Assembly (NCBI GenBank): GCA_026387355.1
Contig: JAPLLW010000012.1
Coordinates: 62,612 to 126,611 of the forward strand
Length of the DNA stretch: 64,000 nucleotides
From: Candidatus Omnitrophota bacterium
GTDB lineage: Bacteria > Omnitrophota > Gorgyraeia > Gygaellales > Profunditerraquicolaceae
Direction: 5' to 3'
Within the stretch, counting starts at the first letter, position 1. The number at the start of each line of letters is the position of its first letter. A program made the translations under genes and the position numbers. The notes under the pieces are model-generated. The model worked only from the letters and a program-made list of their open reading frames with translations, did not search any database and had not been told where the DNA came from. Shown here one piece after another: positions 2,874 through 19,462 of this stretch.

Positions 2874-3272
2874 GTGTACAAGATAGCGGTTAAGCATGTT
2901 AAGGATTACGCTTTTAAAGTAAAATCTTCTGGATATGAGTTTGCTATTGACGCTAAAGGTAAAGAAGGAATTACTCCTCCGGATACGCTTTTGGCCGGTT
3001 TAGCCAGTTGCATCGGCGTGTATGTAACCAAGTATTCTGAGGGCGCTAAGCTTGGTTTAGAAAACTTTGAGATTATAGCTGAGGGAGAATTCAGCACTGA
3101 TGCGCCGGTTCGTTTTAAAGAGGTTAGTATCACTATTGATTTAAAAGGCGCAAAACTTGAGGAGCGCAGGGCGAATGCCTTAATGGAGTTTATTAAAAAC
3201 TGTCCAGTGCATAATACCCTGGAAAACAAACCTGAGGTAAAGATTAGAATAAATGATGGAGATAAGGGCTAG
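2874..3272 (+). CDS. OsmC/Ohr family peroxiredoxin-like protein
   Basis: A GTG start lies 7 nt after an AGGAG ribosome-binding site. The 'LLAGLASC' motif with conserved cysteines and the 132-aa size are typical of OsmC. Confidence 0.75.
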   Translation: MYKIAVKHVKDYAFKVKSSGYEFAIDAKGKEGITPPDTLLAGLASCIGVYVTKYSEGAKLGLENFEIIAEGEFSTDAPVRFKEVSITIDLKGAKLEERRANALMEFIKNCPVHNTLENKPEVKIRINDGDKG

Positions 3273-3975
3273 GCAGAAGAATAATATTGTTATCCTGGAT
3301 TTGGTCGGCCGCATTGATGTGGAATCGGCAAATCTGGTTGAGGCTATCGGCCAGTGCCTGCGCGATGGCTTTACCGATATTCTTTGTAATATGGAAGAGG
3401 TAGAGTTTATAGATTATATGGGGATATCGGTAATCGTTATCGTTTATAAAGAGATAACCAATAGCAAGGGGAGATTGAAATTTACCAATGTCCCAACCCA
3501 CATTAGAAATATTCTTTGCATAGCAGGCCTTGATCGGGCTATTGAGATTCACGTAGATGAGGAATTGGCTCTCAAGAGTTTTGGCGAAGATAAGATAATT
3601 GAAGATATCCAGAAGATGCAGTTGCGCCGCCGTTTTAAGCGTCTACCAATAGATTTGAAGATAGAATTAAAATCTAAATTTGGCAGGAGTCCGGTTTGCC
3701 TTAAGCTTGATCTGCTTAATTTAAGCGCAGTAGGCGCTTTTATCTTTGGGTGTGATAAATTTAAACTCGGCGATGAAGTAGTCTTGAAGTTACAGCTGCC
3801 CCCTAAGAACGAAGAATTCGAATTAGAAGCAAAGGTGGTCTGGATCCCCGATAAACATGTTCAACCGCATGCCTATCCTGGGCTCGGGGTAGAGTTTATA
3901 AATATTTTGCCACAGAAGCAGCAGAAGCTTATTGATTTCATCGAAAGAAACCTCTCTTTTATGTCCACGGATTAG
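3253..3975 (+). CDS. STAS (anti-sigma-factor antagonist) domain fused to a C-terminal PilZ (c-di-GMP binding) domain
   Basis: The N-terminal 'IVILDLVGRIDVESANLVEAIGQCL' is an SpoIIAA/STAS fold. The C terminus carries the PilZ motifs 'RRRFKR' (RxxxR) and 'DLLNLSAVG' (D/NxSxxG). The ORF overlaps the end of the osmC-like gene by 20 nt. Confidence 0.7.
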   Translation: MMEIRARQKNNIVILDLVGRIDVESANLVEAIGQCLRDGFTDILCNMEEVEFIDYMGISVIVIVYKEITNSKGRLKFTNVPTHIRNILCIAGLDRAIEIHVDEELALKSFGEDKIIEDIQKMQLRRRFKRLPIDLKIELKSKFGRSPVCLKLDLLNLSAVGAFIFGCDKFKLGDEVVLKLQLPPKNEEFELEAKVVWIPDKHVQPHAYPGLGVEFINILPQKQQKLIDFIERNLSFMSTD

Positions 3976-4752: not shown

Positions 4753-5805
4753 TTGCCTATGAAAGACTTTCTTTATAAGTTGGCTACGGACAGGTACAGG
4801 GGGCCATTTTTTGCTATTTCAAAGCTCTTACTCTTACTGCTTTCTTTTGTTTATGGAGCCGTGATCAGGGGGTTAACCCTCCTTTTAACCTCTAGGGCGG
4901 TAAGCCCAAAATGCAGAGTTATTAGTATCGGCAATATTACTTTAGGGGGGACAGGTAAAACTTCTTTAGTAAAATTTGTTGCGCTTACCCTTCAGGCTAA
5001 TAAACATAAGGTTGCGATAATTAGCAGGGGTTATAAAAGACTAGCCTTAGGATTGGGTGATGAGCCTTCTATGTTGCTTAATGGTTTAAAGGATATTCCG
5101 GTGATTGTGGACAGGGACAGATTGCGTGGCGCCCAGAGAGCAGCTGATGAATACGCAGCAGATACGGTAATTTTTGATGATGGGATGCAGCAGTGGAGGG
5201 TAAAAAAGGATTTAGAGATCGTAGTAGTGAACGCGGTTGAGGCCTTTGGCAATCGGCATATGATACCTCGTGGGGTATTGCGTGAACCTCTCTCTTCGCT
5301 TAAGCGGGCAGATGTCTTTGTTTTAGCTAAGACTAATCTCGTCCTGAGCACTGAAGATATCAAAAAGAACTTGAATAAGATTAAACCCGGTACGCTTATC
5401 GTAGAGACTATACATCATCCGGAGGATTTATATGAACTTAGAAATCCGCAAAAGCATTTAGCTACGGATTTCCTGAAAGATAAAAACGTGGCTTTATTCT
5501 CAGGGATAGGCGATCCGGATTCTTTTGTAAGTTTGGTCAGGAATCTAGGGGCAAAGCCTAAATTGGATTTGAGGTTTATAGACCACCATAATTATAGCGA
5601 TGAGGATATATCCGGGATTATTAATAAATCTAAGCAGAAAGATCTAAAAATAATTGTTACAACAGAAAAAGATGCTTCTAGGCTCTCTGAAGAGAGGCTC
5701 AAGCCTTTTGATGATTTTAAACTCTTAGTTTTACCCATAAAATTAAAGATTGTTAAAAATGAAGGAGAATTTATTGCTAGATTACTTAGCTTGCGTTCTA
5801 TTTAA
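4753..5805 (+). CDS. lpxK: Tetraacyldisaccharide 4'-kinase LpxK
   Basis: The P-loop 'GNITLGGTGKT' is the LpxK signature. The 350-aa size fits, and waaA and lpxL neighbours support the call. Confidence 0.85.
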   Translation: MPMKDFLYKLATDRYRGPFFAISKLLLLLLSFVYGAVIRGLTLLLTSRAVSPKCRVISIGNITLGGTGKTSLVKFVALTLQANKHKVAIISRGYKRLALGLGDEPSMLLNGLKDIPVIVDRDRLRGAQRAADEYAADTVIFDDGMQQWRVKKDLEIVVVNAVEAFGNRHMIPRGVLREPLSSLKRADVFVLAKTNLVLSTEDIKKNLNKIKPGTLIVETIHHPEDLYELRNPQKHLATDFLKDKNVALFSGIGDPDSFVSLVRNLGAKPKLDLRFIDHHNYSDEDISGIINKSKQKDLKIIVTTEKDASRLSEERLKPFDDFKLLVLPIKLKIVKNEGEFIARLLSLRSI

Positions 5806-7702
5806 TGTCTTAGGCGCTATCTTTCGAATCTTACCTATCGGCGTATGTCTTTTTTTAGGCAGAAGACTTGGGGATTGTTTTTTTTATTTTGACCCCAGGC
5901 ATAAGGCAAGAAGCTACGCCAATATTAAGACTGCCTTGGGGGATAAATTAGAACCCAAGCAGATCTTGCGCTTAACCAGAGAATTCTACCAATCATTTGG
6001 ACAGAGTATAATCGAAATATTTCTTATTCCTATTATTGACCGTAAATATCTGGAAAAATATGTGCAGACTGAAGGCTCTGAGTATGTGTACAGTGCGTTA
6101 AAAAGAGGTAAGGGTGTAATTTTACTATCTGTTCACGCAGGAAGCTGGGAGCTCTCTAATCTTATCAGTGCTAATTTTGGATTTCCATTTGTTTTATTTG
6201 TTAAGGGGCAGCATTTCCCGCGTTTAAATAAATTACTAAATAGATATAGGCAAGCGAAGGGCTGCAAAATAATCACCAGAGAAGGCGGTCTTAAGCAGTT
6301 GATTGATAGTTTAAAAAGTAACTCTGCTGTTGGAATTACTTTGGATCAAGGCGGTAGGGCAGGTAGCTTAACAGATTTCTTTGGCCAAAATGCTTCCATG
6401 TCAACCGGTTGGATAAAGCTTGCGTTAAAATATGACTGTAGCGTTATCCCGGTATTCTTTACGCGAGTTTCAGGGCCAAAGATTAAGGTATTTGCCGCAA
6501 AACCGCTAGAATTGATCAGGAGTAATGATTTAGAAAAGGATATTCAGGATAATTTGAATCTGGCGACTAAAGTTTTTGAGGGATTTATCAGGAAATATCC
6601 AAAAGAATATCTTTGGACTTATAAGATTTGGAAATACTCAGACCAAAGGAATATTCTGATTTTAAGCGATGGTAAGTCCGGGCACCTGCGTCAATCAGAG
6701 GCGCTAGCTAAGATCGCTGGAAATTGTTTCAAGGATAAAGGGATAAAATCAAAAGTTAGTATTGTAGAGATAAAGTTTAAGGGTAGGTTCTCAAAGGTTG
6801 CATTATCCCTAAGTAGTTGCCTTATAGGTAAGTATTCTTGTCAGGGCTGCTTACGGTGTCTTAGAAAGTTCCTTGATGATAATACAAATAAAAGCTTAGC
6901 TGTAATTAAGCCGGATCTGGTTATCTCTTGCGGATCAAAACTTGCTTTGATTAATTATCTAATTTCGGCAGAAAATCAGAGTAAATCTGTTACATTAATG
7001 CGTCCGCCATTTTTTAGTGCAGCTAGATTTGATTTAGTAGTTATGCCACAACACGATCATACTTTCAGGCGTAAGAATATAGTCGTAACTACAGCCGCAC
7101 TGAATCTTATTGATCGGGAATATCTGGATGAGCAATCGGCAAAGCTTATGCGTTCTTACAATCTAAACGCGCAAGCTATCTATCTAGGTATATTAATAGG
7201 AGGATCTAGTAAGAAATTTAGGCTGGATAAGGACTTAATGGTTAGGGTGGTACGGGAGATTAAAACAGTAGCAGAGATAATTAATGCGGATATTCTTTTA
7301 ACTACTTCCCGCCGCACAGAGGGGGAACTCGAAGATTTAATAAAAAAAGAATTTAAGGATTATTCCCGGGCAAAGCTCGTAGTTATTGCTAATGAAAAAA
7401 ATATTCCTGAAGCCGTTGGCGGGATATTAGGTTTAAGTAAGATAATCATAAGTTCTCCAGAAAGTATATCGATGATCTCTGAGGGTGTTAATAGCGCAAG
7501 ACCGGTTGTAGTTTTTAATGCGCCGGGATTAAGTAGGAAGCATCAAGAGTTTTTGAGGAATTTAGCTAAAAAGAATTACATCTCCTTAGCGGAAAAAGAC
7601 AGTCTGGTTAAAGTAGTTACAGATCTTTGGGTGGATAAGCCAGCTAGGCATGTTTTAGAGGATAATGCGTTAATCACAAAAGCCTTAGAGAGAATATTAT
7701 GA
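5750..7702 (+). CDS. Fusion protein with an N-terminal lipid A biosynthesis (Kdo)2-lipid IVA acyltransferase domain (LpxL/HtrB family) and a C-terminal Elm1/DUF1022-like (GT-B-like) domain
   Basis: Residues ~1-300 resemble the LpxL family ('LSVHAGSWELSN', 'ITLDQGG'). Residues ~300-650 begin 'RNILILSDGKSGHLRQSEALAKIAG', the characteristic start of the bacterial 'mitochondrial fission ELM1' family. The annotated start overlaps lpxK by 56 nt, so the true start may be downstream. Confidence 0.65.
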   Translation: MLKMKENLLLDYLACVLFNVLGAIFRILPIGVCLFLGRRLGDCFFYFDPRHKARSYANIKTALGDKLEPKQILRLTREFYQSFGQSIIEIFLIPIIDRKYLEKYVQTEGSEYVYSALKRGKGVILLSVHAGSWELSNLISANFGFPFVLFVKGQHFPRLNKLLNRYRQAKGCKIITREGGLKQLIDSLKSNSAVGITLDQGGRAGSLTDFFGQNASMSTGWIKLALKYDCSVIPVFFTRVSGPKIKVFAAKPLELIRSNDLEKDIQDNLNLATKVFEGFIRKYPKEYLWTYKIWKYSDQRNILILSDGKSGHLRQSEALAKIAGNCFKDKGIKSKVSIVEIKFKGRFSKVALSLSSCLIGKYSCQGCLRCLRKFLDDNTNKSLAVIKPDLVISCGSKLALINYLISAENQSKSVTLMRPPFFSAARFDLVVMPQHDHTFRRKNIVVTTAALNLIDREYLDEQSAKLMRSYNLNAQAIYLGILIGGSSKKFRLDKDLMVRVVREIKTVAEIINADILLTTSRRTEGELEDLIKKEFKDYSRAKLVVIANEKNIPEAVGGILGLSKIIISSPESISMISEGVNSARPVVVFNAPGLSRKHQEFLRNLAKKNYISLAEKDSLVKVVTDLWVDKPARHVLEDNALITKALERIL

Positions 7703-9786
7703 GAGTGCTGCAAATATTACCGGAACTTAATGTCGGGGGTGTTGAAACCGGGACACTGGACCTGGCTAAATACTTAGTGCGTCAGGGCCATCATGCAGTA
7801 GTAGTTTCGGCAGGAGGTGTTTTGGTCAAAGATTTAGAGGCACTGGGAGCTGTGCATTATCAATTACCGGTGCATAAGAAATCGCTATTTACCATGTTTA
7901 AGGCTATAGCGCCACTTGCGGAGATTATAAAAAAAGAAAAGATTGATATTGTGCATGCTCGATCGCGAGTTCCTGCCTGGATAGCTTATTTTGCTGCTCG
8001 AAAATGCAAGGTTGTTTTTATAACTACCTGTCATGGTTATTATAAAATGCATCCTTTTAGCTATGTTATGGGCTGGGCAAAAAGAGTAATTGTTTTGAGT
8101 AATATAATTGCCCGACATATGATCGATGATTTTAGCGTGCCGCATGAACGTATAAAGTTAGTCCCGCGAAGTGTAGATCTGGAGAAGTTTAAATATTTGA
8201 GTCCGGATAAGAAGCGGGGTAAAGAATTTAATATCGGTCTTATCGGTAGGATTACTCCTTTAAAGGGCCATCTTTATTTTATCAAGGCTATGGCTAAGGT
8301 GGCTAGAGTCGTGCCTACATTAAAAATCTGGATAGTGGGAGATGCGCCTAGTTCGCGTCAGGCATATAAAGAACAGGTCCAGGTTTTAACCAGGAGATTG
8401 GGACTTGATCATTGCACGGAGTTTCTGGGGACACAAAGGAATATTCCTGAGATCCTTTCGCATCTGGACCTGGTAGTTTTAGCTACCACAACTCATGAAG
8501 CATTCGGCAGGGTGATTATTGAGGCCCAGGCAGCAGGCGTTCCTGTGGTAGCAACCGAAGTAGGTGGTGTTGTAGATATTATTGAGAATGGTCGCACAGG
8601 TTTACTTGTTCCTCCTGCGGATGCGCAAGGGATGGCGGATGCGGTTGTTAAGATATTCAAGGATCCGTCTCTTGCTCGCGATTTTGCTGAGGCAGCGTAT
8701 AAAAAGGTTAAGGATAAATATAATATTGAATTGATGGTCAAGAATACGCTAGCTGTTTACGAAGAGGCCTTGAGTAACTTCAAGCTGCTCATTATAAAGC
8801 TCAGCTCTTTAGGAGATATTATTTTATCTACCGCAAGTTTAAGAGCGATAAGAGAAAGATTCCCGCATCATAAAGTGAGTCTTTTGGTAGGAGAGGAGTC
8901 CAAAGAAGTATTATTCAGATGCCCATATATAGATGAACTTTTAGTAGTTGATCTTAAAGATAAGGATAAGGGGCTAAAGGGTTTGCTAAGCATTGCCCGT
9001 ATTTTAAGAAAAAAGAACTTTGATTTAGTTATTGATCTGCAGAATAACCGCGCAAGCCATATACTTTCCTTTCTTTCTTTATCCATCGATCGCTACGGCT
9101 ATGATAATAAAAAACTAAGTTTCTTACTTAACCATCGGATTAAGGATATTCTGCCGTTAGTTGATCCGGTAGCGCATCAGTTTAGATTGCTTAAGATGTT
9201 GGGGATAGATCTGAAGGATAACCGTTTAGAGTTGTGGCCAGCTAAAGAAGATGAAGATTATGTGGAGAATTTATTAAATACGCAATGGTTAAGTATTGAC
9301 CAGAAGATCATCGGCATAAATATAAGCGCAAGTAAGCGCTGGCTCACTAAGTATTGGGCCAAAGATAATATTGCGCGGTTGTGCGAGGAGCTGGGTTTAC
9401 GAAATATGCGCGTAGTACTTACCGGAACAGCTAGAGATTCCGCGGACGCTAAAGAGATTATCTCTATGATTAAGAATACAAAAATCATAAATGCCTGCGC
9501 TAAAACCAATGTAAATCAGCTAGCTTGTTTAATTAAAAGATGCTCAGTATATATCTCCGCTGATTCTTCACCTTTACATATTGCTGTAGCAGTAAAGGTT
9601 CCTGTAATCGCATTTTTCGGGCCGACTGATCCTAATAGACATATGCCTCCGGCAAGAGAGGCAATAGTTATTAAAAGGGACCTACCGTGCAGCCCGTGTT
9701 ATAAACCCAAATGCAAGGATAAGAAATGCATGAGTTTGATTACAGTTGAAGAAGTTTTAGGGGCGGTAGAAAAGCTATCAAAATGA
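7699..9786 (+). CDS. Bifunctional glycosyltransferase with an N-terminal GT4 domain and a C-terminal GT9 (LPS heptosyltransferase-like) domain
   Basis: The GT4 motif 'EAFGRVIIEAQAAGVPVVATEVGG...GLLVPP' sits in residues ~1-350. From ~355, 'LLIIKLSSLGDIILSTASLRAIRERFPHHKVSLLVGEE' and the C-terminal 'SADSSPLHIAVAVKVPVIAFFGPTDP' are typical of WaaC/WaaF/WaaQ. Confidence 0.75.
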   Translation: MRVLQILPELNVGGVETGTLDLAKYLVRQGHHAVVVSAGGVLVKDLEALGAVHYQLPVHKKSLFTMFKAIAPLAEIIKKEKIDIVHARSRVPAWIAYFAARKCKVVFITTCHGYYKMHPFSYVMGWAKRVIVLSNIIARHMIDDFSVPHERIKLVPRSVDLEKFKYLSPDKKRGKEFNIGLIGRITPLKGHLYFIKAMAKVARVVPTLKIWIVGDAPSSRQAYKEQVQVLTRRLGLDHCTEFLGTQRNIPEILSHLDLVVLATTTHEAFGRVIIEAQAAGVPVVATEVGGVVDIIENGRTGLLVPPADAQGMADAVVKIFKDPSLARDFAEAAYKKVKDKYNIELMVKNTLAVYEEALSNFKLLIIKLSSLGDIILSTASLRAIRERFPHHKVSLLVGEESKEVLFRCPYIDELLVVDLKDKDKGLKGLLSIARILRKKNFDLVIDLQNNRASHILSFLSLSIDRYGYDNKKLSFLLNHRIKDILPLVDPVAHQFRLLKMLGIDLKDNRLELWPAKEDEDYVENLLNTQWLSIDQKIIGINISASKRWLTKYWAKDNIARLCEELGLRNMRVVLTGTARDSADAKEIISMIKNTKIINACAKTNVNQLACLIKRCSVYISADSSPLHIAVAVKVPVIAFFGPTDPNRHMPPAREAIVIKRDLPCSPCYKPKCKDKKCMSLITVEEVLGAVEKLSK

Positions 9787-9859
9787 CCCCGTACCTACGT
9801 ATAATTCAGTCATTAAAGGCAGGGGGTTCTAATAAGTTAATTAAAAAAGTAGGTGCGGG

Positions 9860-10957
9860 GTGAAAATTCTTTTTATAATTAATCATCTTAATGTCGGAGG
9901 GATTACCAGCTATTCTCTGACTTTGGCAAAGGGCCTAAAGGCAGCCGGGCATGGTGTATATTGCGCGACTTACGCAGGAGAACTATTACCTAAATTTAAG
10001 GAAGCAGGAGTAGTTTACATGCATATACCAATAAAGACAAAGAAAGAAATTAATCCTAAAATATTATATAGCGTTTTTAAATTATCTAAAATAATAAAAG
10101 CAGAGAAAATTGATATTGTGCATACACATAGCCGGACGACTCAGGTTTTAGGGAGTCTGTTGCAGTGGTTTACCGGAGTAAAGCATGTTTTTACTTGTCA
10201 CGGTTTTTTTAAAAGCAGAATTTTACGTAGGCTATTCCCTTGTTGGGGGGATAAAATAATCGCTGTAAGTCAGCAAGTTAAAGATCACTTGGTTCAAGAT
10301 TTCAAAGTAAGCGATAAAAAAATAGTTGTTATAAATAACGGAATAGATGCGGATAGGTTTATTGGAGAGCTAAGTAAGACCAAGGACGAGATAAGGCAAG
10401 AGCTAGGATTAAACCATGGTCCTTTAGTTGGAATTATTGCCAGGCTTTCGGATGTTAAGGGGCATAAGTATCTTATTGAAGCAATGAAAGTAGTCTTAGA
10501 AAAGGCTCCTTCTGCGCAATTAGTAATTATAGGCGAAGGCAAGATGCAGGAAGAATTAAAAAACCTGACTATGGGGATAGGAATCAGTAAAAGCGTAATC
10601 TTTATCCAGCAGACATCTAATATGCAAGAGGCTTTGTCTGTTATGGATGTATTCGTAATGCCTTCATTGCAGGAAGGTTTAGGCCTTGCGCTTATGGAGG
10701 CAATGGCTTCTGGACTAAGTGTTGTTGGTTCAAATGTGGGTGGGATCAAAACTTTGATTGAGCATGGGCGCAATGGTTTATTAGTTGAGCCTGCTGATTC
10801 ACAGGGGCTAGCTTGCGCGATATCCAAGTTATTAGACGACGTATCCTTAAGGGAGAGATTAGGCATAGAGGCACGTAAGTTTATCCAGAATAATTTCTCT
10901 CAAAAGAAGATGGTTGATCAAACACTGGAGGTTTATGCGTCATGTTTAAGAGAATAA
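9860..10957 (+). CDS. Glycosyltransferase family 4 (WaaG/RfaG-like)
   Basis: The ORF has a GTG start. 'ILFIINHLNVGGITSY' and the C-terminal 'QEGLGLALMEAMASGLSVVGSNVGG...NGLLVEP' are typical of GT4. Confidence 0.85.
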   Translation: MKILFIINHLNVGGITSYSLTLAKGLKAAGHGVYCATYAGELLPKFKEAGVVYMHIPIKTKKEINPKILYSVFKLSKIIKAEKIDIVHTHSRTTQVLGSLLQWFTGVKHVFTCHGFFKSRILRRLFPCWGDKIIAVSQQVKDHLVQDFKVSDKKIVVINNGIDADRFIGELSKTKDEIRQELGLNHGPLVGIIARLSDVKGHKYLIEAMKVVLEKAPSAQLVIIGEGKMQEELKNLTMGIGISKSVIFIQQTSNMQEALSVMDVFVMPSLQEGLGLALMEAMASGLSVVGSNVGGIKTLIEHGRNGLLVEPADSQGLACAISKLLDDVSLRERLGIEARKFIQNNFSQKKMVDQTLEVYASCLRE

Positions 10958-11727
10958 GATTAATAGTAAGTGCCTGTTTGATTATTGTGTTTGTAGTATC
11001 AATCGGGTATCTACGCAGCATACGCACAGTTACGGTTATTACATATCATTCAATCGCGGCGATTGCGGATGAGGATGACCGGTTAACAGTTTTACCTAAG
11101 TCATTTAACCGGCAAATGCAGTTTTTAAAAGATCATAAATACAATGTTATCTCTTTAGAGAGACTGGGGGAACTTATTAAGTCTAAAAAAGCCCCTGATA
11201 AAACTATTGCCATAACCTTTGATGACGGCTTTAAGGATAATTATCTTTATGCCTATCCTGTTTTAAAGAGGTTAAATTTTCCAGCGACCATATTTATTAT
11301 TGTAGATAAGGTTGGTAGTTCAGGCAAGCGTTTGACTTGGGAGGAGATTAAGGAGATGCAGGGATCTGGTTTAATTACTTTTGGTAGCCATACCTTAAGT
11401 CATCCATATTTAACTGAAATTAATTCCGAGGCTGAGCTAAAAAGGCAAATCTTTGATTCTAAAAAGATTCTCGAGCAGAAATTAGGGGTTCCAGTAGATG
11501 TATTTTGTTATCCTTCCGGTAGATTTAATGCACATATTAAAGATTTGGTAGTCCAGGCAGGTTATAAGTTTGCCGTAGGGACAACTTTGGGGAAGAGGTT
11601 TTCTAATTTCGATCCATATTTAATTAAAAGAGTACGTATTTCTGCAAGTTCGGATAATCTAATTGATTTTTGGGCAAGGGTGAGCGGTTATTATAATTCA
11701 TTTCGGAAGCACAGCCGTACAAATTAA
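10942..11727 (+). CDS. Polysaccharide deacetylase (NodB homology domain), membrane-anchored
   Basis: There is an N-terminal TM helix. 'AITFDDGFKDNY' matches the NodB motif 1 (TFDDG), followed by 'HTLSHPYL'. Confidence 0.8.
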   Translation: MFKRIRLIVSACLIIVFVVSIGYLRSIRTVTVITYHSIAAIADEDDRLTVLPKSFNRQMQFLKDHKYNVISLERLGELIKSKKAPDKTIAITFDDGFKDNYLYAYPVLKRLNFPATIFIIVDKVGSSGKRLTWEEIKEMQGSGLITFGSHTLSHPYLTEINSEAELKRQIFDSKKILEQKLGVPVDVFCYPSGRFNAHIKDLVVQAGYKFAVGTTLGKRFSNFDPYLIKRVRISASSDNLIDFWARVSGYYNSFRKHSRTN

Positions 11728-12770
11728 TGAGTAAAGAGCATTCTGCTAAACGCATCCTTATTTTTAATGTTAATTGGCTAGGAGATGTTTTATTCTCTAC
11801 CGCTGTAATTAGAAATGTTCGACGTAATTTCCCGCATAGTTTTATTGCCTGCGTAATACCCAGCAGGTGCTATCCGGTGCTAAAAGGTAATCCGCATTTA
11901 GACGAAATAATTATCTTTGACGAAAAAGACCGGCATAGAAATGTCCTTCAGCGTTTAGATTTTATTCGCATACTTAAGGCTAAGAAATTTGATATTGCTT
12001 ATTTATTGCACCGTTCTTTCAGCCGCGCCTTAATCTGCAGGCTTGCGGGTATCCCTGAAAGGATAGGGCACCATACAAAGAAGAGAGGCTTTCTACTTAC
12101 AAAAAAAATCATACCTCCGCATAGAGATTCTTTGCATCGTATAGATTATTATTTGGATGTTATTGAAAAGGCGGGTTTAAAGATTGAAGACAGGTTTGCG
12201 GAATTCTTTTTTGGAAATGAGGACTTAGAATTCGTTGAAAAATTCTTAAGCAAGAATACGGTAGCAAAGGAAGATTTTGTAGTTGTGCTGAATCCTGGAG
12301 GAAACTGGTTGGCTAAGCGTTGGCCAAAAGATCATTGGGCGCGTCTTGCGGACAAATTAATACATGATTTCAAAGCCAAAGTGGTACTTACCGGTTCCCA
12401 TAATGATATATCTTTGGCTAAACATATCCAGGATGAGATGGTAAATAAGCCGATAATTGCCTGTGGAGTATTTAATTTAAAACAGCTTGGGGCATTAGCT
12501 AAGAGAGCGGATATATTTATTACTGCTGATACAGGGCCTTTGCATATTGCCAATAGCGTAGGTGCAAAGAAGATTATTGCAATCTTCGGTCCGACCTCAA
12601 CCTTGATTACCGGGCCTTATCCTGTGAAAAATGTAGTCATTCTGCAAAAAGACGTAGGCTGCGTTATCCCTTGTTATGAAGTTAACTGTAAAGATAGCCG
12701 TTGCATGAAGGCAGTTACAGTAGATGACGTAATAAATCAAGTAAAGTTACTAAGACTTACCAATGGTTAA
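11727..12770 (+). CDS. Glycosyltransferase family 9 (ADP-heptose:LPS heptosyltransferase-like)
   Basis: 'ILIFNVNWLGDVLFSTAVIRNVRRNFP' and 'ITADTGPLHIANSVGAKKIIAIFGPT' are typical GT9 motifs. Confidence 0.85.
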   Translation: MSKEHSAKRILIFNVNWLGDVLFSTAVIRNVRRNFPHSFIACVIPSRCYPVLKGNPHLDEIIIFDEKDRHRNVLQRLDFIRILKAKKFDIAYLLHRSFSRALICRLAGIPERIGHHTKKRGFLLTKKIIPPHRDSLHRIDYYLDVIEKAGLKIEDRFAEFFFGNEDLEFVEKFLSKNTVAKEDFVVVLNPGGNWLAKRWPKDHWARLADKLIHDFKAKVVLTGSHNDISLAKHIQDEMVNKPIIACGVFNLKQLGALAKRADIFITADTGPLHIANSVGAKKIIAIFGPTSTLITGPYPVKNVVILQKDVGCVIPCYEVNCKDSRCMKAVTVDDVINQVKLLRLTNG

Positions 12771-14787
12771 TAAAATCTTATTTATAACATTAAGTAATAT
12801 CGGTGATGTAGTATTGACTTTGCCGGTCCTAGATTTCCTGCGTCAGAATTTTCCCAATGCTTCGATTAGCGTAATTTGCGGCGTTAGGCCAAAAGAGCTG
12901 TTTGTTAATAGCCCGTACATCAATAAGCTTATTGTCTACGATAAGTATGCTCACCTTGCGCAGAAGCTAGAATTATTTAATAATCTAAGAAGAGAAAATT
13001 TTGATTTGATAGTGGATTTACGTAACTCCTTTCTGGGAGCGATTTTGCCAACTAGGTTTAGGACTTCCCCATTCCTAATGATACCTAGGTATATACAACA
13101 TATGAAAGATAGGCATCTTTATAGAGTCAAGAGTTTACGGTTAGGGAATGAATTAGCTAAGCCCGTGGATAAAACTTTTAATATCGCTCGTGCCGATGAG
13201 GAGTTTATTAAAAAGATATTGCAAGAAAATAATATACGTGAAGACGATAGATTGGTAGTAGTTTCTGCCGGAGCCAGGAGTGGTAGCAAGAAATGGCCCA
13301 GGGAAAGATTTGTGCAATTAATTTTTAAGTTAGTAAATGAATTATCTGTGAAAATAATTCTGGTGGGGGATAAAGGAGATGTTGCGTTAAGCCAGTCTAT
13401 TGCTAAGGAGTTAAAAAGTCAAGTCCTGGACTTAAGCGGCAGAACAAACTTAGGTGCATTAGCTGCGCTTATAAAGAAATCTAACCTTTTAATATGTAAT
13501 GATAGTGCAGTAATGCATATTGCTAGCTATTTTGATATTCCGGTTGTAGCTATATTTGGAATTACCGATGATGAAAAATACGCCCCATGGTCACAAGATT
13601 CTTCTGTGGTAAAGAAAGAGATCTTCTGCAGACCGTGCGAAAAGGCTGTATGCAGATTTGGGACTTTAGAATGTCTATCCCGGGTGCAGGTTGACGATGT
13701 CTTTAGAGAGGTAAAAGACAGATTAGAGAAAAAAGTTATAAGTAAAATCCCGCAAGATCTTAAGCGTATATTAATTGTACGTACTGATAGAATCGGAGAT
13801 GTGCTTTTATCTACTCCTGTAATTAAGGCGATTAGAGAGAGATATCCAAATGCTTTTCTTGCGATGATGGTTTCTGCGTATGCCAGGGAGATTATCGAAG
13901 GCAATCCTTATTTAGACCAGGTGATTATTTATGATAAAGACACAAAGCATAAGACTTGGATAAGTTCAATTAAGTTTGCCAAAGATCTTAATAAAAAGAA
14001 GTTTGATCTAGCGCTAGTCTTACATCCGACTAACCGCGTGCATTTAATTACTTTCCTCGCTGGGGTTCCCAGGAGGATAGGGTTAAACCGGAAGTTAGGG
14101 TTTTTGCTTACTAGTAAGTCAACGCATACCAAACAATTCGGGGAAAAGCATGAGTTAGAATATAACCTTGGTTTATTAAATTTTCTAGGGATTAAAGCAG
14201 AAGATAAAAGATTGTATATGCCGATTAAAGAAGAATCTGAAAAGAAGATCGAAGAGATGTTTCAGTTTCAATGTTTATGGTCGAAAGATAAATTATTAGC
14301 AATTCATCCGGCTGCCAGCTGTCCTTCTAAGATTTGGCCGGTAGAACGTTTTGCTGAATTAGCCGAAAAATTAGCGCAAAAATACGGGTTTAAAGTTTTA
14401 ATTGTCGGCGCCCCAAATGAAATGGGGCTTGCCGAAGATTTAATTAAGCGCATACATATACCGGTGATTAATTTCGTAGGTAAGACATCGATTAGTCAAT
14501 TAGCCAGTTTATTAAAAAGATGTACACTTTTTATTTCAAATGATTCAGGCCCGGTGCATATTGCATCAGCCGTAGGTACGCCGGTAATCTCAATTTTCGG
14601 AAGGAATCAGGCAGGCTTGAGTCCTAAGCGTTGGGGGCCAGTGGGCCCTAAAGATAAATTCTTGCATAAAGAGGTTGGGTGCATTAAGTGTTTGGCTCAT
14701 AATTGCAAGAAGGAATTCGCCTGTCTTAAGGCGATAAGCGTTGAGGATGTGGTTGAAGCGGCTAGTGTAATTATTAATCAACATTAG
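12763..14787 (+). CDS. Tandem double GT9 heptosyltransferase-like protein (two complete GT9 domains in one polypeptide)
   Basis: Domain 1 has 'ILFITLSNIGDVVLTLPVLDFLRQNFP' and 'ICNDSAVMHIASYFDIPVVAIFG'. Domain 2 (from ~aa 335) has 'ILIVRTDRIGDVLLSTPVIKAIRERYP' and 'ISNDSGPVHIASAVGTPVISIFG'. Confidence 0.8.
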   Translation: MVNKILFITLSNIGDVVLTLPVLDFLRQNFPNASISVICGVRPKELFVNSPYINKLIVYDKYAHLAQKLELFNNLRRENFDLIVDLRNSFLGAILPTRFRTSPFLMIPRYIQHMKDRHLYRVKSLRLGNELAKPVDKTFNIARADEEFIKKILQENNIREDDRLVVVSAGARSGSKKWPRERFVQLIFKLVNELSVKIILVGDKGDVALSQSIAKELKSQVLDLSGRTNLGALAALIKKSNLLICNDSAVMHIASYFDIPVVAIFGITDDEKYAPWSQDSSVVKKEIFCRPCEKAVCRFGTLECLSRVQVDDVFREVKDRLEKKVISKIPQDLKRILIVRTDRIGDVLLSTPVIKAIRERYPNAFLAMMVSAYAREIIEGNPYLDQVIIYDKDTKHKTWISSIKFAKDLNKKKFDLALVLHPTNRVHLITFLAGVPRRIGLNRKLGFLLTSKSTHTKQFGEKHELEYNLGLLNFLGIKAEDKRLYMPIKEESEKKIEEMFQFQCLWSKDKLLAIHPAASCPSKIWPVERFAELAEKLAQKYGFKVLIVGAPNEMGLAEDLIKRIHIPVINFVGKTSISQLASLLKRCTLFISNDSGPVHIASAVGTPVISIFGRNQAGLSPKRWGPVGPKDKFLHKEVGCIKCLAHNCKKEFACLKAISVEDVVEAASVIINQH

Positions 14788-14937
14788 CGTCTCACCTTGT
14801 CTTGTTTCTCGCAGGGACGCTTGTTTTGCCCTAGCGTGGCAAAACTAAGCTCGGGTCGGCTGCGTCGCTCTCTGACACTAAGGTGACGGAACCATGCCCG
14901 CTCCTTGCCGACACGCCCTGCTCGAAATCAAGTCAAG
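14788..14937 (+). repeat. GC-rich ~150-bp intergenic repeat element, copy A (MITE-like, or a structured RNA), with imperfect terminal inverted repeats
   Basis: It is ~85% identical to 50766-50914. The left end 'CGTCTCACCTTGTCTTGTTTCTCGCAGG' and the right end 'CCTGCTCGAAATCAAGTCAAG' form an imperfect inverted repeat. An internal hairpin reads GTTTTGCC-ctagcgt-GGCAAAAC. It is sharply GC-rich in an AT-rich genome and starts 1 nt after the stop codon. Confidence 0.6.
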
Positions 14938-14999
14938 TTGAGGCGCATGAAATATCTAGTTGATTTAACAGTAAATTATGTTAAAATTATAGCTTCGCC

Positions 15000-15929
15000 A
15001 TGATTAACTTAAACAAAGTAAAGACATATTCAATTAAGACCCGTTTTAGCAAGGTAAAATCGACAGATTTTGCCAAGATACCGGCTAAGGGGAGGAGTTT
15101 CTCTAGCTTTATGGATTCCCTTCCTAATATCTTAAAGGCTAAGGAGATACACTCTATTGTTGAAAGCATAGTTAAGGCTCGAAAGCAGAAGAAAGCCGTG
15201 ATCTTAATGGCTGGCGCGCATGTGATAAAATGCGGGCTGAATCCGGTGATAATTGAGCTGATTAAAAAGAAGGTTATTACTTGCGTATGCCTTAACGGAG
15301 CCGGTATAATCCATGATTTTGAACTAACCCTTCAGGGGAAGACTTCTGAAGATGTTGCGGAGAATTTAAAAACCGGTAAATTCGGGATGGGCCGGGAGAC
15401 CGCCGATTTCTTAAATAACGCTGTTGTCGACGGAGTAGCTGATGGCTTAGGCTTAGGTTATGCAGTAGCCAAGAAGATAGATGAAACAAAATTGCCGCAT
15501 AAAAACCTAAGTTTATTGCTAGCAGCTTATAAGCAGAAGATCCCGCTTTGCGTATTTGTGGCTATCGGAACAGACATTATCCACCAGCATCCTTCTTTTG
15601 ATGCCGGGCTTACTGCCGAAGGTTCCCAGCGCGATTTTTATACTTTAGTAGAGCATATAAGTTCACTTAATAATGGCGGAGTGGTTTTAAATTTTGGTTC
15701 AACGGTAATTATGCCGGAGGTATTCCTTAAGGCGCTTAATCTTGCGCGCAATCTTGGTGGAAAAGTGAAAGATTTTACTACTGCAAATTTTGATATGATT
15801 CACCACTACCGGCCGCAGCAGAATGTAGTGACGCGACCGGTTCTATCCGGCGGTAAAGGTTATTATATTATCGGTCACCACGAAATAATGCTCCCGCTTT
15901 TAGCGCAGGCAGTAACGGAGAGGTTATGA
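15000..15929 (+). CDS. Deoxyhypusine synthase-like protein (DHS family, NAD-binding fold)
   Basis: The pattern 'VILMAGAHVIKCG..LNPVIIELIKKKVITCVCLNGAGIIHDF' parallels the DHS core 'IFLGYTSNLISSG..VDVLVTTAGGVEEDL'. A weaker C-terminal similarity 'GVVLNFGSTVI' is also present. The call rests on recalled motifs only. Confidence 0.45.
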   Translation: MINLNKVKTYSIKTRFSKVKSTDFAKIPAKGRSFSSFMDSLPNILKAKEIHSIVESIVKARKQKKAVILMAGAHVIKCGLNPVIIELIKKKVITCVCLNGAGIIHDFELTLQGKTSEDVAENLKTGKFGMGRETADFLNNAVVDGVADGLGLGYAVAKKIDETKLPHKNLSLLLAAYKQKIPLCVFVAIGTDIIHQHPSFDAGLTAEGSQRDFYTLVEHISSLNNGGVVLNFGSTVIMPEVFLKALNLARNLGGKVKDFTTANFDMIHHYRPQQNVVTRPVLSGGKGYYIIGHHEIMLPLLAQAVTERL

Positions 15930-16939
15930 AGAATCTTAAAGAAATAATCAAGAAACTCAATAGATCTAAAGTTCTTGTCATCGGGGATTTGATTCTTGAT
16001 GAATACATCTGGGGAAAGGTAGAGAGGATTTCTCCCGAGGCCCCTGTTCCAGTAGTCTGGGCAAATAAAAAAACACATGTTCCGGGAGGGGCTGCGAACG
16101 TAGCGAATAATATCCGTTCATACGGAGCAGATGTGTATTTAGCGGGAGTACTCGGCAGCGATAAGAACGCCCAGGTGCTTTTAACAGAGCTAGAAAATAA
16201 TAAGATAAATACTAAGGGGATATTTGAGGAATCTACTCGATATACGACTGTAAAAAGCCGGATTATTGCAGGGCATCAACAGATAGTCAGAGTTGATTGG
16301 GAGCATACCGCGCCTTTAGCAAAAGAGACAACGCATAAGATTTTTAATTTTATTAAAATGAATATCAAAAATTTTGATGCGGTGATTATCGAAGATTATG
16401 GTAAGGGGGTAATTAACGCCCAGTTGCTTGGGAGCGTTATCTCTCTTGCTCGCTCGCATAATAAGATTATAATGGTTGATCCGAAAGAAGACCATTTTCA
16501 ATATTACGTAGGGGTAAATTCAATTACGCCTAACCGTAAGGAGCTTGAGAATGCGGTAAGGAATTTAAAGATTAAGGATAATAAAAATAAGTTGAAACTT
16601 GATAGCGATAAACTCTTCACCGATAAAGATATAAATCTTGCCGGTCAGCAAATCTTAGAATATTTAAACCTTGAGTCTTTATTGGTGACTTTGGGTGAGC
16701 AGGGAATGAAGTTATTTGAGAAGGGCGGCCGCATGACCCATATTCCGACCGTAGCTCAGGAGGTATTTGATGTCTCTGGAGCAGGGGATACGGTAATTTC
16801 CACTTTTACACTTGGTTTGTGCGCCGGTGCAAGTAAATTAGAGGCAGCGCATATTGCTAATTATGCAGCAGGTATCGTAGTCGGAAAAGTTGGCACGGCT
16901 ACAACTACCCGTGATGAACTATTAGAGAGGTTGGGTTAG
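15926..16939 (+). CDS. hldE: D-glycero-beta-D-manno-heptose-7-phosphate kinase (HldE/RfaE domain I, PfkB family). The adenylyltransferase domain is absent
   Basis: 'VLVIGDLILDEYIWGKVERISPEAPVPVV' is the RfaE kinase signature, and 'DVSGAGDTVISTF' is the PfkB motif. At 337 aa it covers only domain I. Confidence 0.85.
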   Translation: MKNLKEIIKKLNRSKVLVIGDLILDEYIWGKVERISPEAPVPVVWANKKTHVPGGAANVANNIRSYGADVYLAGVLGSDKNAQVLLTELENNKINTKGIFEESTRYTTVKSRIIAGHQQIVRVDWEHTAPLAKETTHKIFNFIKMNIKNFDAVIIEDYGKGVINAQLLGSVISLARSHNKIIMVDPKEDHFQYYVGVNSITPNRKELENAVRNLKIKDNKNKLKLDSDKLFTDKDINLAGQQILEYLNLESLLVTLGEQGMKLFEKGGRMTHIPTVAQEVFDVSGAGDTVISTFTLGLCAGASKLEAAHIANYAAGIVVGKVGTATTTRDELLERLG

Positions 16940-16941
16940 CT

Positions 16942-17682
16942 ATGGATGTGATCGGAGTAATTCCTGCTAGGTATTCTTCCACAAGATTCGAAGGTAAGGT
17001 CTTGGCTAAAATACTCGGTAAACCCATGATCCAGCATGTCTGGGAGAGGGCAAAGCAGGCAAAGTGTTTAGACGATATAATTATCGCTTGCGATAACGAA
17101 TCAGTGGCCAGAGTTGCTCAGGAATTTGGGGCAAAAGTTGTGATTACTTCTAAGGATCATACCTGCGGGACAGATAGGATAAGCGAAGTGATAAATCCTC
17201 TGGATGTAAAGATAGTGGTGAATATCCAAGGGGATGAGCCCTTGATTCATCCTACGATGATAGATAGCGTAGCGCGTGCGCTTTTAGAAGATAAAAGTTT
17301 AAATATGGCTACGCTTATGAAAAGGATAGATGATGCACAGTCTGTTAGCGATCCGAATGTAGTTAAGGTGGTAGTGGATAGAAATAATTTTGCCTTGTAT
17401 TTCTCACGCTCAGCCATTCCTTATTTTGCGAATAATTCCGAAATTAAAGATCCGGTTTATTTTAAGCATATCGGGCTATATGCCTATACCAAAGATTTTA
17501 TCTTTACCTATAGAAATCTACCCGTTTCTATTTTAGAACAGATTGAAAAACTTGAACAGTTAAGGGTTCTGGATGGTGGTTTTAGGATTAAGGTTATTGA
17601 AACAAAGTATGATACCGTAGGCGTAGATACTCAAAGCGACCTAGAGAAGGTTGAGGCTTATTTAAGAGAAGAGAAGATATAA
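16942..17682 (+). CDS. kdsB: 3-deoxy-manno-octulosonate cytidylyltransferase (CMP-Kdo synthetase)
   Basis: 'VIGVIPARYSSTRFEGKVLAKILGKPMIQHVWERA' is the canonical KdsB N-terminus. Confidence 0.9.
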   Translation: MDVIGVIPARYSSTRFEGKVLAKILGKPMIQHVWERAKQAKCLDDIIIACDNESVARVAQEFGAKVVITSKDHTCGTDRISEVINPLDVKIVVNIQGDEPLIHPTMIDSVARALLEDKSLNMATLMKRIDDAQSVSDPNVVKVVVDRNNFALYFSRSAIPYFANNSEIKDPVYFKHIGLYAYTKDFIFTYRNLPVSILEQIEKLEQLRVLDGGFRIKVIETKYDTVGVDTQSDLEKVEAYLREEKI

Positions 17683-18494
17683 TGCATGAGGTAATGGTAA
17701 AAAATATTCCGCTCGGTAATTCCAGGCCTTTGGTGCTTATTGCCGGACCCTGCGTAATCGAATCCCAAACGTTATGTCTTGATACCGCCAAAAGAATTAA
17801 GGATATTACTGTTAAGTTAGGTATTCCTTATATATTTAAATCCAGCTTTGATAAGGCTAACCGTACCTCCGTAGATTCTTATCGCGGGCCGGGGATAAAA
17901 AAAGGCCTTGAGGTTTTAAATAAGGTTAAGCAGCAGATCAAGGTTCCGGTATTAAGCGATGTGCATTGCGCTAAGGATATGCAAGAGGCTGCGAAAGTCT
18001 TGGATATTATCCAGATTCCGGCTTTTTTATCACGCCAGACGGATATTATAGTAAGCGCAGCTAAAACCGGCAAGGTTGTGAATATAAAAAAAGGGCAATT
18101 CTTGGCTCCTTGGGATATCTTGCCGATTATCAAGAAAATTGAATCCGTAGGCAATAAGAAGATTATCATTACTGAGCGGGGGGTAAGTTTTGGTTACAAT
18201 AATTTAGTTACGGATTTTAGGGCGCTACAGATAATGCGCGATTTTGGTTATCCGGTTATCTATGATGCAACCCATAGTATTCAGATTCCCGGTGGGAAGG
18301 GAACTTGTTCCGGAGGAGAAAGAAAGTTCGTGGATGGATTATCGCGCTCAGCCGTAGCTTTTGGTTGCGATGGCCTGTTTCTGGAAGTGCATCCTGATCC
18401 GGATAAAGCGCCTTGCGACGGAGCCAATATGATTAATCTAAAAGATTTGGAAAGGCTACTTAAACAAATTAAAAAGATAGAGGCAGCATTATGA
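17682..18494 (+). CDS. kdsA: 2-dehydro-3-deoxyphosphooctonate aldolase (Kdo-8-P synthase)
   Basis: 'LVLIAGPCVIES' and the DAHP-synthase-I family architecture, at 270 aa. Confidence 0.9.
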   Translation: MHEVMVKNIPLGNSRPLVLIAGPCVIESQTLCLDTAKRIKDITVKLGIPYIFKSSFDKANRTSVDSYRGPGIKKGLEVLNKVKQQIKVPVLSDVHCAKDMQEAAKVLDIIQIPAFLSRQTDIIVSAAKTGKVVNIKKGQFLAPWDILPIIKKIESVGNKKIIITERGVSFGYNNLVTDFRALQIMRDFGYPVIYDATHSIQIPGGKGTCSGGERKFVDGLSRSAVAFGCDGLFLEVHPDPDKAPCDGANMINLKDLERLLKQIKKIEAAL

Positions 18495-19459
18495 AGATAG
18501 ATGTGATTAAAAGGGCAAGAGAGGTTTTTGATATCGAGGCAGGCGCAATTAAAGATTTAAAAAAGCGCCTGGGTAAGAATTTTAAAGATTCAGTAAGTTT
18601 AATCCTGAAGACAAAAGGTCGGGTAATCGTAAGCGGGATGGGTAAGACCGGGATTATCGCTCAGAAATTTTCTGCTACTCTTGCATCAACCGGTACACCT
18701 AGTCTATTTTTGCATACTGCTGAAGCAATTCACGGCGATCTAGGTAAGGTTACAAACGACGATGTAGTTATTATACTTTCTAATAGCGGTTCGACCGAAG
18801 AGATGAAGCAATTTCTCCCGCTATTAAAGAAGATAGGTGCTAAAGTGATTGCGCTTACCGGTAACACAAAGTCTATTTTAGCAAAATATAGCGATTTAGT
18901 CTTAGATGTATCCGTAAAGAAAGAAGCATGTCCTTTAGGTCTTGCGCCTACGGCGTCTACTACCGCAACTCTAGCTATGGCTGATGCCCTAGCGGTCTGC
19001 TTATTGGAATTAAAAGGTTTTAAAGAAAAAGATTTTGCATTCTTTCATCCCGGTGGTGCTTTAGGCAAGCGCCTGCTTTTGAAGGTTGAAGATATTATGC
19101 GCTCAGGCAAAGCTAACCCGATAGTTAAAGAGAATGAATTGGTCTCAAGGGTGCTTTTAAAGATTACTCAGGCCCGCGCAGGTTCGGCTACAGTAATAGA
19201 TAGAGCCGGGAAGTTAATAGGTATATTTACTGACGGAGATCTGCGCCGCCATGTGGAGATTGATCGTAATCTTTCTGTACGCAAGATTAAAGAGGTAATG
19301 ACCAAGAATCCTACTGTAGTTTATAAGGATATGCTGGCAGCCGAGGCTATGCGCATCTTGCAGGAGAAAAGAATTGATGAATTACCGGTAGTAAATATTA
19401 AAAGAGAGCCGGTTGGACTTTTAGATGTGCAGGATCTTTTAAAAGCAGGATTAGCTTAA
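18491..19459 (+). CDS. kdsD: Arabinose-5-phosphate isomerase KdsD/KpsF (SIS plus tandem CBS domains)
   Basis: The SIS motif 'GRVIVSGMGKTGIIAQKFSATLASTGTPS' is followed by C-terminal CBS pairs. Confidence 0.9.
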   Translation: MKIDVIKRAREVFDIEAGAIKDLKKRLGKNFKDSVSLILKTKGRVIVSGMGKTGIIAQKFSATLASTGTPSLFLHTAEAIHGDLGKVTNDDVVIILSNSGSTEEMKQFLPLLKKIGAKVIALTGNTKSILAKYSDLVLDVSVKKEACPLGLAPTASTTATLAMADALAVCLLELKGFKEKDFAFFHPGGALGKRLLLKVEDIMRSGKANPIVKENELVSRVLLKITQARAGSATVIDRAGKLIGIFTDGDLRRHVEIDRNLSVRKIKEVMTKNPTVVYKDMLAAEAMRILQEKRIDELPVVNIKREPVGLLDVQDLLKAGLA

Positions 19460-19462
19460 GGC

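Follow-up and report, generated by a model that had tools for sequence, protein, structure and literature searches.

The window analysed here is the whole 64,000-nucleotide stretch of contig JAPLLW010000012.1 from a Candidatus Omnitrophota bacterium, and positions 7699-14787 of it hold a run of glycosyltransferase (GT) genes. We conclude that this run is probably the part of a lipopolysaccharide (LPS) operon, shared across the phylum Omnitrophota, that encodes core-oligosaccharide synthesis, with six colinear GT-B modules carried by four genes. In other lineages, the same colinear modules were found joined into proteins at different points, and this Rosetta-stone-type evidence suggests that they are functionally coupled.

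All five open reading frames (ORFs) of the run were recovered on the forward strand with the coordinates and lengths given by the original prediction, an earlier reading of the bare sequence. They encode a GT4-GT9 fusion protein (7699-9786, 695 amino acids (aa)), a stand-alone GT4 (GT4s; 9860-10957, 365 aa, GTG start), a NodB-type deacetylase (10942-11727, 261 aa), a stand-alone GT9 (module B; 11727-12770, 347 aa) and a GT9-GT9 tandem protein (12763-14787, 674 aa). Pfam upheld the GT4, GT9 and deacetylase domain calls, NCBIfam agreed with Pfam for all five ORFs, and the fusion halves scored singly when scanned apart. In the 695-aa protein, Glyco_transf_4 and Glycos_transf_1 covered residues 12-335 and Glyco_transf_9 (PF01075) covered residues 431-676 (E = 5e-35). 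These correspond to an N-terminal retaining GT-B module, GT4f (7699-8775, from Pfam), and to GT9 module A in the C-terminal half (8776-9786, from PF01075). The 365-aa protein was a GT4 in Pfam. Module B matched PF01075 with E = 8e-36, and the 674-aa protein contained two Glyco_transf_9 stretches (E = 1.3e-73), assigned with TIGR02195 to module C in the N-terminal half (12763-13752) and module D in the C-terminal half (13753-14787). The PF01075 gathering score of 22 was well exceeded by all four GT9 modules. The junctions, which had been placed near 8750 and 13760, were located at about residue 360 for GT4f/A (nucleotide ~8776, where no more than about 4 residues link the two) and at about residues 322-334 for C/D (nucleotides ~13730-13765).

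We compared the run with a census of the best 80 loci among at least 590 relatives in GTDB species-representative genomes. These 80 loci were all from Omnitrophota, some of them under a placeholder 'Planctomycetales' label with the same synteny. The GT9-GT9 protein was a single ORF in 80/80 loci, and the GT4-GT9 protein was a single ORF in all 52 loci uncut by a contig end. The order LpxL-Elm1 (a further fusion directly upstream of the run), GT4-GT9, GT4, GT9 and GT9-GT9 was also kept in 52/52 loci. Each fusion had more than 120 full-length relatives, with 57-65% identity for the GT9-GT9 protein and 71-84% identity for the GT4-GT9 protein, most of the latter being 695-697 aa long. An identical copy of the 695-aa protein was present in an NCBI metagenome-assembled genome (MAG), and two independent Logan assemblies, SRR20698638 and ERR15302206, yielded this ORF as well. 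AlphaFold2 modelled each fusion as two packed GT-B modules (predicted local distance difference test (pLDDT) 88.6 and 87.6, predicted TM-score (pTM) 0.82 each). Each of these modules superimposed on solved GT9 or GT4 enzymes in Foldseek. No PDB entry spanned two modules, and the query-normalised TM-score (TMq) was never above 0.47.

The fusions are therefore not assembly artefacts, given their conservation across genomes, the independent assemblies, the single ORFs and the AlphaFold2 models. The original prediction had named a hidden stop or frameshift at the junctions, or matches to families other than GT9, as what could undo it; this check was run and the fusions survived, with no internal stop in any of the five ORFs, the two fusions included. 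Assembly or gene calling might have joined two single-domain genes through a frameshift or a lost stop, since indels are possible in MAG-derived sequence and operon neighbours overlap by only a few nucleotides. However, the ORFs are continuous and near-constant in length among their many homologues, the identical 695-aa ORF occurs in three independent assemblies, and the single-ORF counts and confident packing leave this explanation with a negligible chance.

The genes on both sides of the run belong to lipid A, Kdo (3-deoxy-D-manno-octulosonic acid), heptose and LPS-export functions, all on the forward strand. Upstream lie the Kdo transferase WaaA (1561-2817; PF04413, E = 3e-61), the lipid A 4'-kinase LpxK (4753-5805; PF02606, E = 3e-74) and the fusion of an LpxL-type late acyltransferase with an Elm1/PF06258 GT (5750-7702 by Pfam, with the true start possibly at ATG 5759). 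Downstream lie a member of the GSU2086 family whose fold resembles deoxyhypusine synthase (15000-15929; wherever present, between the GT9-GT9 gene and hldA), the HldA/RfaE-domain-I heptose-7-phosphate kinase (15926-16939; TIGR02198, 382 bits versus a cut-off of 345), and KdsB, KdsA, KdsD, KdsC, an LptC-LptA-like fusion and LptB (16942-21606; Pfam and NCBIfam). The resulting order is WaaA, LpxK, LpxL-Elm1, the GT run, the GSU2086-family protein, HldA, KdsB, KdsA, KdsD, KdsC, LptC-LptA-like and LptB, with genes overlapping by 1-16 nucleotides, and it recurs in distant Omnitrophota genomes (e.g., loci L003 and L004). HldA was conserved downstream of the run in 50 loci. The LPS core setting that had been proposed from the window alone was supported, and lipid A biosynthesis belongs to it too, the run lying between lpxK/lpxL and hldA/kdsBADC/lptCAB with the order kept in 52/52 loci.

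This setting bears on whether the run builds some other glycoconjugate, such as a Pel-like exopolysaccharide, a capsule, or a protein O-heptosylated in the manner of TibC and the bacterial autotransporter heptosyltransferases (BAHT). The PelF model NF038011 scored 120-122 for GT4f versus a cut-off of 100, and the deacetylase is PgaB/IcaB-like. However, the PelF alignment covered only model positions 258-489 of 489, and pel, wzx/wzy, ABC-exporter and autotransporter genes were absent nearby, while the run was invariably set between lpxK/lpxL and hldA/kds/lpt. The public names for the 695-aa fusion are 'GT4 family glycosyltransferase PelF' or 'heptosyltransferase II' (P0121 is the identical NCBI protein). 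We rejected PelF identity because the match was limited to the C-terminal half of the model and lpx, kds and lpt genes, not pelA-G, surround the fusion gene. The PelF name is an artefact of this partial model match, and it hides the fusion.

A likeness to TibC also comes from a four-cysteine motif (Cys4), C-x2,3-C-x4-C-x4-6-C, which was invariant near the C-terminus of every GT9 module (A ~9688-9729, B 12660-12704, C 13627-13674 and D 14680-14724, forward strand). The motif occurred in 110/150 representative clusters of the GT9 subclade and was absent from the aligned WaaC, WaaF and 3TOV sequences. AlphaFold2 confidence dipped at these positions. The Cys4 motif is probably a structural metal site for Zn or Fe. 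TibC, which has an ADP-heptose-using GT9-like GT-B domain, carries a Cys4 metal site (iron finger) in its C-lobe with the spacing C-x2-C-x15-C-x11-C (PMC4358343). TibC/AAH (BAHT; 4RAP) and the Omnitrophota modules share the GT9-like GT-B domain and a C-lobe Cys4, with a Foldseek E of ~1e-8. In contrast, the target-normalised TM-score (TMt) was only ~0.5, the Omnitrophota modules were without the N-terminal beta-barrel and beta-hairpin thumb, the Cys spacing was 2-3, 4, 4-6 as against 2, 15, 11 in TibC, and the genomic context is LPS, not an autotransporter. The Aah/TibC model TIGR04414 gave a weak match (37.4 bits), far under its cut-off of 200, and together with the TMt and the Cys spacing this led us to reject BAHT membership. 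We therefore regard a product other than LPS core as highly improbable for this run.

Halves of distant multi-module relatives were classed against the modules of the window, and their loci were inspected. In the window, the genes are GT4f-A, GT4s, the deacetylase, B and C-D. Locus L088 (protein P0260) instead carries GT4f-A, GT4s-B-C and D. Locus L089 (protein P0310) carries GT4f-A, B-C, D, an extra GT9 and the deacetylase, and GT4s is absent from L089. The B-C fusion was found in P0294 and P0310, the GT4s-B-C fusion (1081 aa) in P0260, and D was a separate gene in both L088 and L089. The module order GT4f-A-GT4s-B-C-D was unchanged across lineages, and the positions of the stop codons alone differed. 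GT4f-A and LpxL-Elm1 were fused in every case examined (GT4f-A in 52/52 loci plus L088 and L089; LpxL-Elm1 as a single ORF in 52/52 loci). Other arrangements were P0318 (875 aa), with a HAD-like domain (PF13242, GmhB-type) between two GT9 modules, and P0373, a GT9-GT4 fusion in the reverse order.

Tandem GT9 proteins, which had been presented as atypical, proved not to be unique to this lineage. Among the 150 best representative clusters, 38 were at least 640 aa long, one of them from Wallbacteria; the distribution beyond Omnitrophota is represented by this Wallbacteria record and one labelled only 'bacterium'. The Wallbacteria tandem GT9 PKK92148.1 (P0301, locus L087) is 716 aa long and follows LpxL; directly after it come a GmhB-like HAD, HldA and HldC. 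This neighbourhood and the HAD insert of P0318 tie the GT9 subclade to the ADP-heptose pathway. Like the window tandem, PKK92148.1 has two GT9 modules and two Cys4 motifs in one protein beside LpxL and heptose-activation genes. It differs in having only ~29% identity and modules that do not correspond one-to-one with C and D (B-like and D-like were best, with near ties), and is possibly an independent fusion.

The original prediction had read the fusions as an assembly line for inner-core synthesis. The part of this idea that concerns coupling gains ground from the alternative breakpoints in other lineages, and channelling or sequential hand-over would be a further step. The alternative breakpoints are the strongest support for an assembly line, yet they are no proof of channelling or of the order of action. 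A stronger proposal, which we hold to be doubtful but worth stating, is a colinear 'megasynthase' in which the order LpxL-KdoT, GT4f-A, GT4s, B, C, D would be the order of sugar addition and the acceptor would be passed along within one membrane complex (KdoT being the family discussed below for the Elm1 half). If this were true, the lineage-specific breakpoints would be snapshots of one complex, the system would be a glycolipid counterpart of polyketide synthase and nonribosomal peptide synthetase (PKS/NRPS) colinearity, and naturally fused pairs would be available for solving substrate hand-over between consecutive core GTs.

The four GT9 modules showed 26-34% pairwise identity (C versus D, 28%), and the two GT4 modules were 32% identical. 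They are therefore old paralogues and not the products of recent duplication, and the 28% identity of C and D, with all GT9 pairs at 26-34%, rules out a recent tandem duplication as the origin of the GT9-GT9 protein. Four residues are key in E. coli WaaC (D13, K192, D261 and H266), and its signature is D(T/S)(A/G)XXH; K192 contacts heptose O5/O6, and the D,D-heptosyltransferase WahD has the signature variant D(T/S)(S/A)XXH (PMC3559599). Equivalents of all four residues were present in all four GT9 modules and were invariant or nearly so across 45-68 orthologues. The signature was exact in modules B, C and D. In module A it was DSSPLH, the WahD-type variant, with Ser replacing Gly/Ala at the third position. 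Invariant positions were D373, K551, D622, H627 and C664/667/672/677 in module A (50 homologues), D15, W178, D247 and C289/292/297/304 in module C (45 homologues), and D346, W525, D594, H599 and C640/643/648/654 in module D (45 homologues). Module B kept D20, K197, W199, D268, H273 and its four Cys in 67-68/68 orthologues, and in module C, D15, K176, D247 and H252 aligned with WaaC D13, K192, D261 and H266. In the GT4 modules, the EX7E glutamates were E267 and E275 in GT4f, invariant in 50 homologues, and E272 and E280 in GT4s, kept in 61-62/62 orthologues.

Because the GT9 key residues and the GT4 EX7E are conserved, a dead scaffold module is unlikely. Other systems include GT-like domains without catalytic function, and each fusion could hold one catalytic module beside a degenerate pseudo-glycosyltransferase serving as scaffold or for acceptor binding. 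Among the GT9 modules, C diverges most (26-29% identity to the rest), and conservation is lower for the GT9-GT9 protein than for the GT4-GT9 protein (median identity 57% versus 70% across census loci). However, the catalytic Asp, the K-x-W lysine and D(S/T)xxxH were invariant or nearly so in both modules of both fusions among 45-50 homologues, and the same modules stand alone elsewhere (D at loci L088 and L089; P0269 and P0290 are C-like). With residues and stand-alone forms of this kind, we give the pseudo-enzyme explanation little credence and prefer six catalytic modules.

The GT9 modules superimposed on 3TOV with TMt 0.81-0.90, on WaaF with 0.79-0.80 and on WaaC with 0.79, and the best PDB matches of module D were 3TOV and WaaF 1PSW. 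For TIGR02195 (HepII/WaaF, cut-off 134.6), the scores were 127.8 for A, 154.7 for B, 142.9 for C and 159.8 for D. For TIGR02193 (HepI/WaaC, cut-off 185.3), they were 93.3, 66.6, 92.2 and 93.6, respectively. Modules B, C and D are only 26-34% identical and therefore not all WaaF orthologues, so that TIGR02195 does not discriminate here. Assignment to a WaaC, WaaF or WaaQ type, for which an alignment of each GT9 had been proposed, is not possible from sequence: no module matched at the HepI cut-off, and three paralogues pass HepII.

Several of these points, with others, weigh against reading the run as a heptose-based LPS core. The HepI/WaaC cut-offs (TIGR02193, 185.3; NF008204, 437) were reached by no module, module A was below every NCBIfam heptosyltransferase cut-off, and membership of GT9 does not prove heptose as the donor. 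GmhA, GmhB, HldC and HldD were not seen in the 64-kb window, where HldA alone was found. The LPS of Omnitrophota is read here from its genes, and the 80-locus census is skewed to closer relatives. An alternative in keeping with these points is that an LPS core is built but at least one GT9 module transfers a sugar other than heptose, which would make 'heptosyltransferase' a partly wrong label. The Ser in the module A signature, the single heptose-pathway gene in the operon, and the unusually heptose-rich inner core that four heptoses and an extra Kdo would make all lend it some weight. On the other side, the equivalents of K192 and D261/H266 are kept in all four modules, the operon keeps HldA, GmhB-, HldA- or HldC-like genes lie next to relatives or are fused with them, and the module A-type signature variant has been reported for the heptosyltransferase WahD (PMC3559599). 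We regard a non-heptose donor for one or more modules as a possibility to be kept in view, though clearly less likely than our main reading of the run.

Among known single-module enzymes, E. coli WaaC, WaaF and WaaQ (GT9; 2H1H, 1PSW) share with the Omnitrophota modules the Pfam family, the GT-B fold (TMt 0.79-0.80) and the key residues, and their genes likewise accompany those for lipid A, Kdo and heptose. They differ in that the E. coli enzymes are single-module proteins of ~320-350 aa, whereas the Omnitrophota modules are covalently paired, ~19-26% identical to them, none HepI-scoring and all with a C-terminal Cys4. Multi-module GTs of O-antigen and capsule synthesis include WbdA with its two GT4 modules, KpsC with Kdo-transferase modules in tandem, and WbbB. 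In these, as proposed for the Omnitrophota fusions, one polypeptide makes successive transfers on one lipid-linked acceptor. However, they are polymerising or linker-building enzymes from other GT families, while the Omnitrophota proteins would act on a non-repeating core and include GT9. A literature search on tandem, bifunctional or fused GT9 and on Omnitrophota LPS genetics found nothing specific. The families GT9, GT4, CE4, LpxL and KdoT are all known, and what is new is a conserved, variably fused and colinear set of core GT modules.

The original prediction overlooked the adjacent third fusion, LpxL-Elm1, which implies an extra Kdo step and so alters the likely core chemistry. This ORF matched PF03279 and PF06258, the latter with E = 9e-47. 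In the LpxL half, the HX4E dyad H129 and E134 was invariant in 53/53 orthologues. The Elm1 half carried SRRT at residues 520-523, with S520, R521 and R522 invariant in 53/53 and T in 51/53. No PDB relative of the Elm1 half was found. In December 2025, KdoT ('ELM1-like') was shown to be a CMP-Kdo transferase that adds a third Kdo; it depends on an invariant SRRT motif, its partner is the GT4 enzyme GnaT/LpsB, and Rickettsia has a functional KdoT homologue (PMC12856342). Among solved structures, GT4f was closest to 7MI0, an uncharacterised Rickettsia africae GT4 (198 bits, TMt 0.83). GT4s scored 113 bits against the same entry, and other GT4 structures scored ~98 bits. Foldseek matches of the GT4 modules were 7MI0, HepE and BshA with TMt 0.82-0.86, and no literature on 7MI0 was found. 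Since SRRT is present in the Elm1 half and the next module downstream, GT4f, is nearest to a Rickettsia GT4, the Elm1 module and GT4f may, as a lead, be a KdoT/GnaT-like pair, and the core may contain an extra Kdo bearing a GT4-added sugar. The pair is comparable to KdoT and its GT4 partner GnaT/LpsB of Acinetobacter baumannii (PMC12856342) in that the Omnitrophota gene carries a PF06258 domain with SRRT and is directly followed by a GT4 module. It differs in that LpxL is joined to the Omnitrophota KdoT-like module and GT9 to the GT4, the two systems being likened by domain and motif. A role for the Elm1 domain as a WaaA substitute was rejected, WaaA itself being encoded at 1561-2817.

The 261-aa protein matched PF01522 (Polysacc_deac_1, E = 4.5e-30), and its PgaB/IcaB-like NCBIfam matches were under the cut-off. 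The window copy has the motifs TFDD at 92-95 and HTLSH at 150-154. D94, D95 and H150 were invariant in 45/45 orthologues, while the second metal-motif His was aligned in only 11/45, possibly through an alignment shift. The N-terminus was hydrophobic in 45/45 orthologues (Kyte-Doolittle (KD) hydrophobicity at least 1.9). The gene was found in 44/61 loci, was missing at L003 and L004, and was relocated in L089. The census count rules out a lineage-specific insert. The deacetylase had been placed in the middle of the run as one of its members, and these results do not bear out a fixed membership. The view that fits best is of a tailoring enzyme that is optional and membrane-anchored, with a topology that we infer from its N-terminus, and it plausibly N-deacetylates an amino sugar of the core or close to the lipid. 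The optional presence and the N-terminal anchor make modification of the glycan at or beyond the membrane likelier than action within a cytoplasmic assembly line.

From the gene set, we infer donor sugars, acceptors and an order of steps as follows. LpxK would make lipid IVA and WaaA would add Kdo to it, after which the LpxL-KdoT-like fusion would add a secondary acyl chain and probably one more Kdo. The GT4 modules would add hexose- or N-acetylhexosamine-type sugars from UDP- or GDP-donors, and the GT9 modules would use ADP-heptose to add heptose or a related sugar. All of these transfers would take place on the cytoplasmic side of the inner membrane, with the acceptor anchored there by its lipid, and the product would then be flipped and handed for export to the Lpt proteins, whose genes lie downstream. 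The fusion of modules would fix their stoichiometry and hold successive active sites by the same membrane-bound acceptor, and the optional membrane-anchored deacetylase would probably N-deacetylate the amino sugar.

Other features of the operon and the window were recorded alongside the run. The GSU2086-family gene showed a median identity of 73% across 51 loci and was missing in L024, L026, L037, L079 and L089; its product may have a part in the metabolism of heptose or the core. The only sizeable intergenic gap of the LPS block (14788-14999, 212 nucleotides) separates this gene from the GT9-GT9 gene, the other positive gaps being at most 73 nucleotides. The gap has a promoter-like site with an extended -10 (14960-14987) shortly before the GSU2086-family gene. 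Over the region as a whole, promoter and terminator matches were at chance level. The equivalent gap in L003 holds a 169-aa ORF without a Pfam match. Further downstream, LptC and LptA/LptD_N-like domains share one ORF (19995-20903, forward strand, 302 aa) with LptB next to it, and a comparable single ORF was found in 30/37 related loci. A STAS-PilZ protein is encoded between waaA and lpxK (3253-3975, forward strand), and its gene is conserved at this position in the distant Omnitrophota loci L003 and L004. It is a possible cyclic di-GMP receptor, which hints that envelope synthesis is regulated. The remainder of the window consists of housekeeping genes. ORFs at 18-683 (221 aa) and 25917-27665 (582 aa), both on the forward strand, had no Pfam match at E <= 1e-4, and an Rfam scan of the whole window gave no match. 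Strand bias was extreme over the 64 kb, with 56 of the 58 ORFs of at least 150 aa on the forward strand, and the GC skew was positive in every 2-kb bin (0.13-0.29).

For these organisms and for the enzyme family, the findings have several consequences. The single-domain names 'heptosyltransferase II' and 'PelF' in public databases hide the fusions, and this matters for predicting the envelope chemistry of small, possibly host-dependent bacteria. With the LpxL-KdoT-like fusion, the KdoT family, which was characterised only in late 2025, reaches into a distant phylum without cultured members, and the fusion would link extra Kdo addition with late acylation. Omnitrophota offer a natural experiment in which six modules in constant order are joined as different pairs or triples by lineage. 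This variable joining argues for physical or kinetic coupling, and it provides ready-made fused constructs for the structure and enzymology of consecutive core steps. It also bears on how peripheral LPS-core GTs reach one membrane acceptor in order, and on whether they do so as a complex. Such an arrangement is no great surprise in principle, yet the fusions give a concrete and testable handle on how consecutive LPS-core GTs work together.

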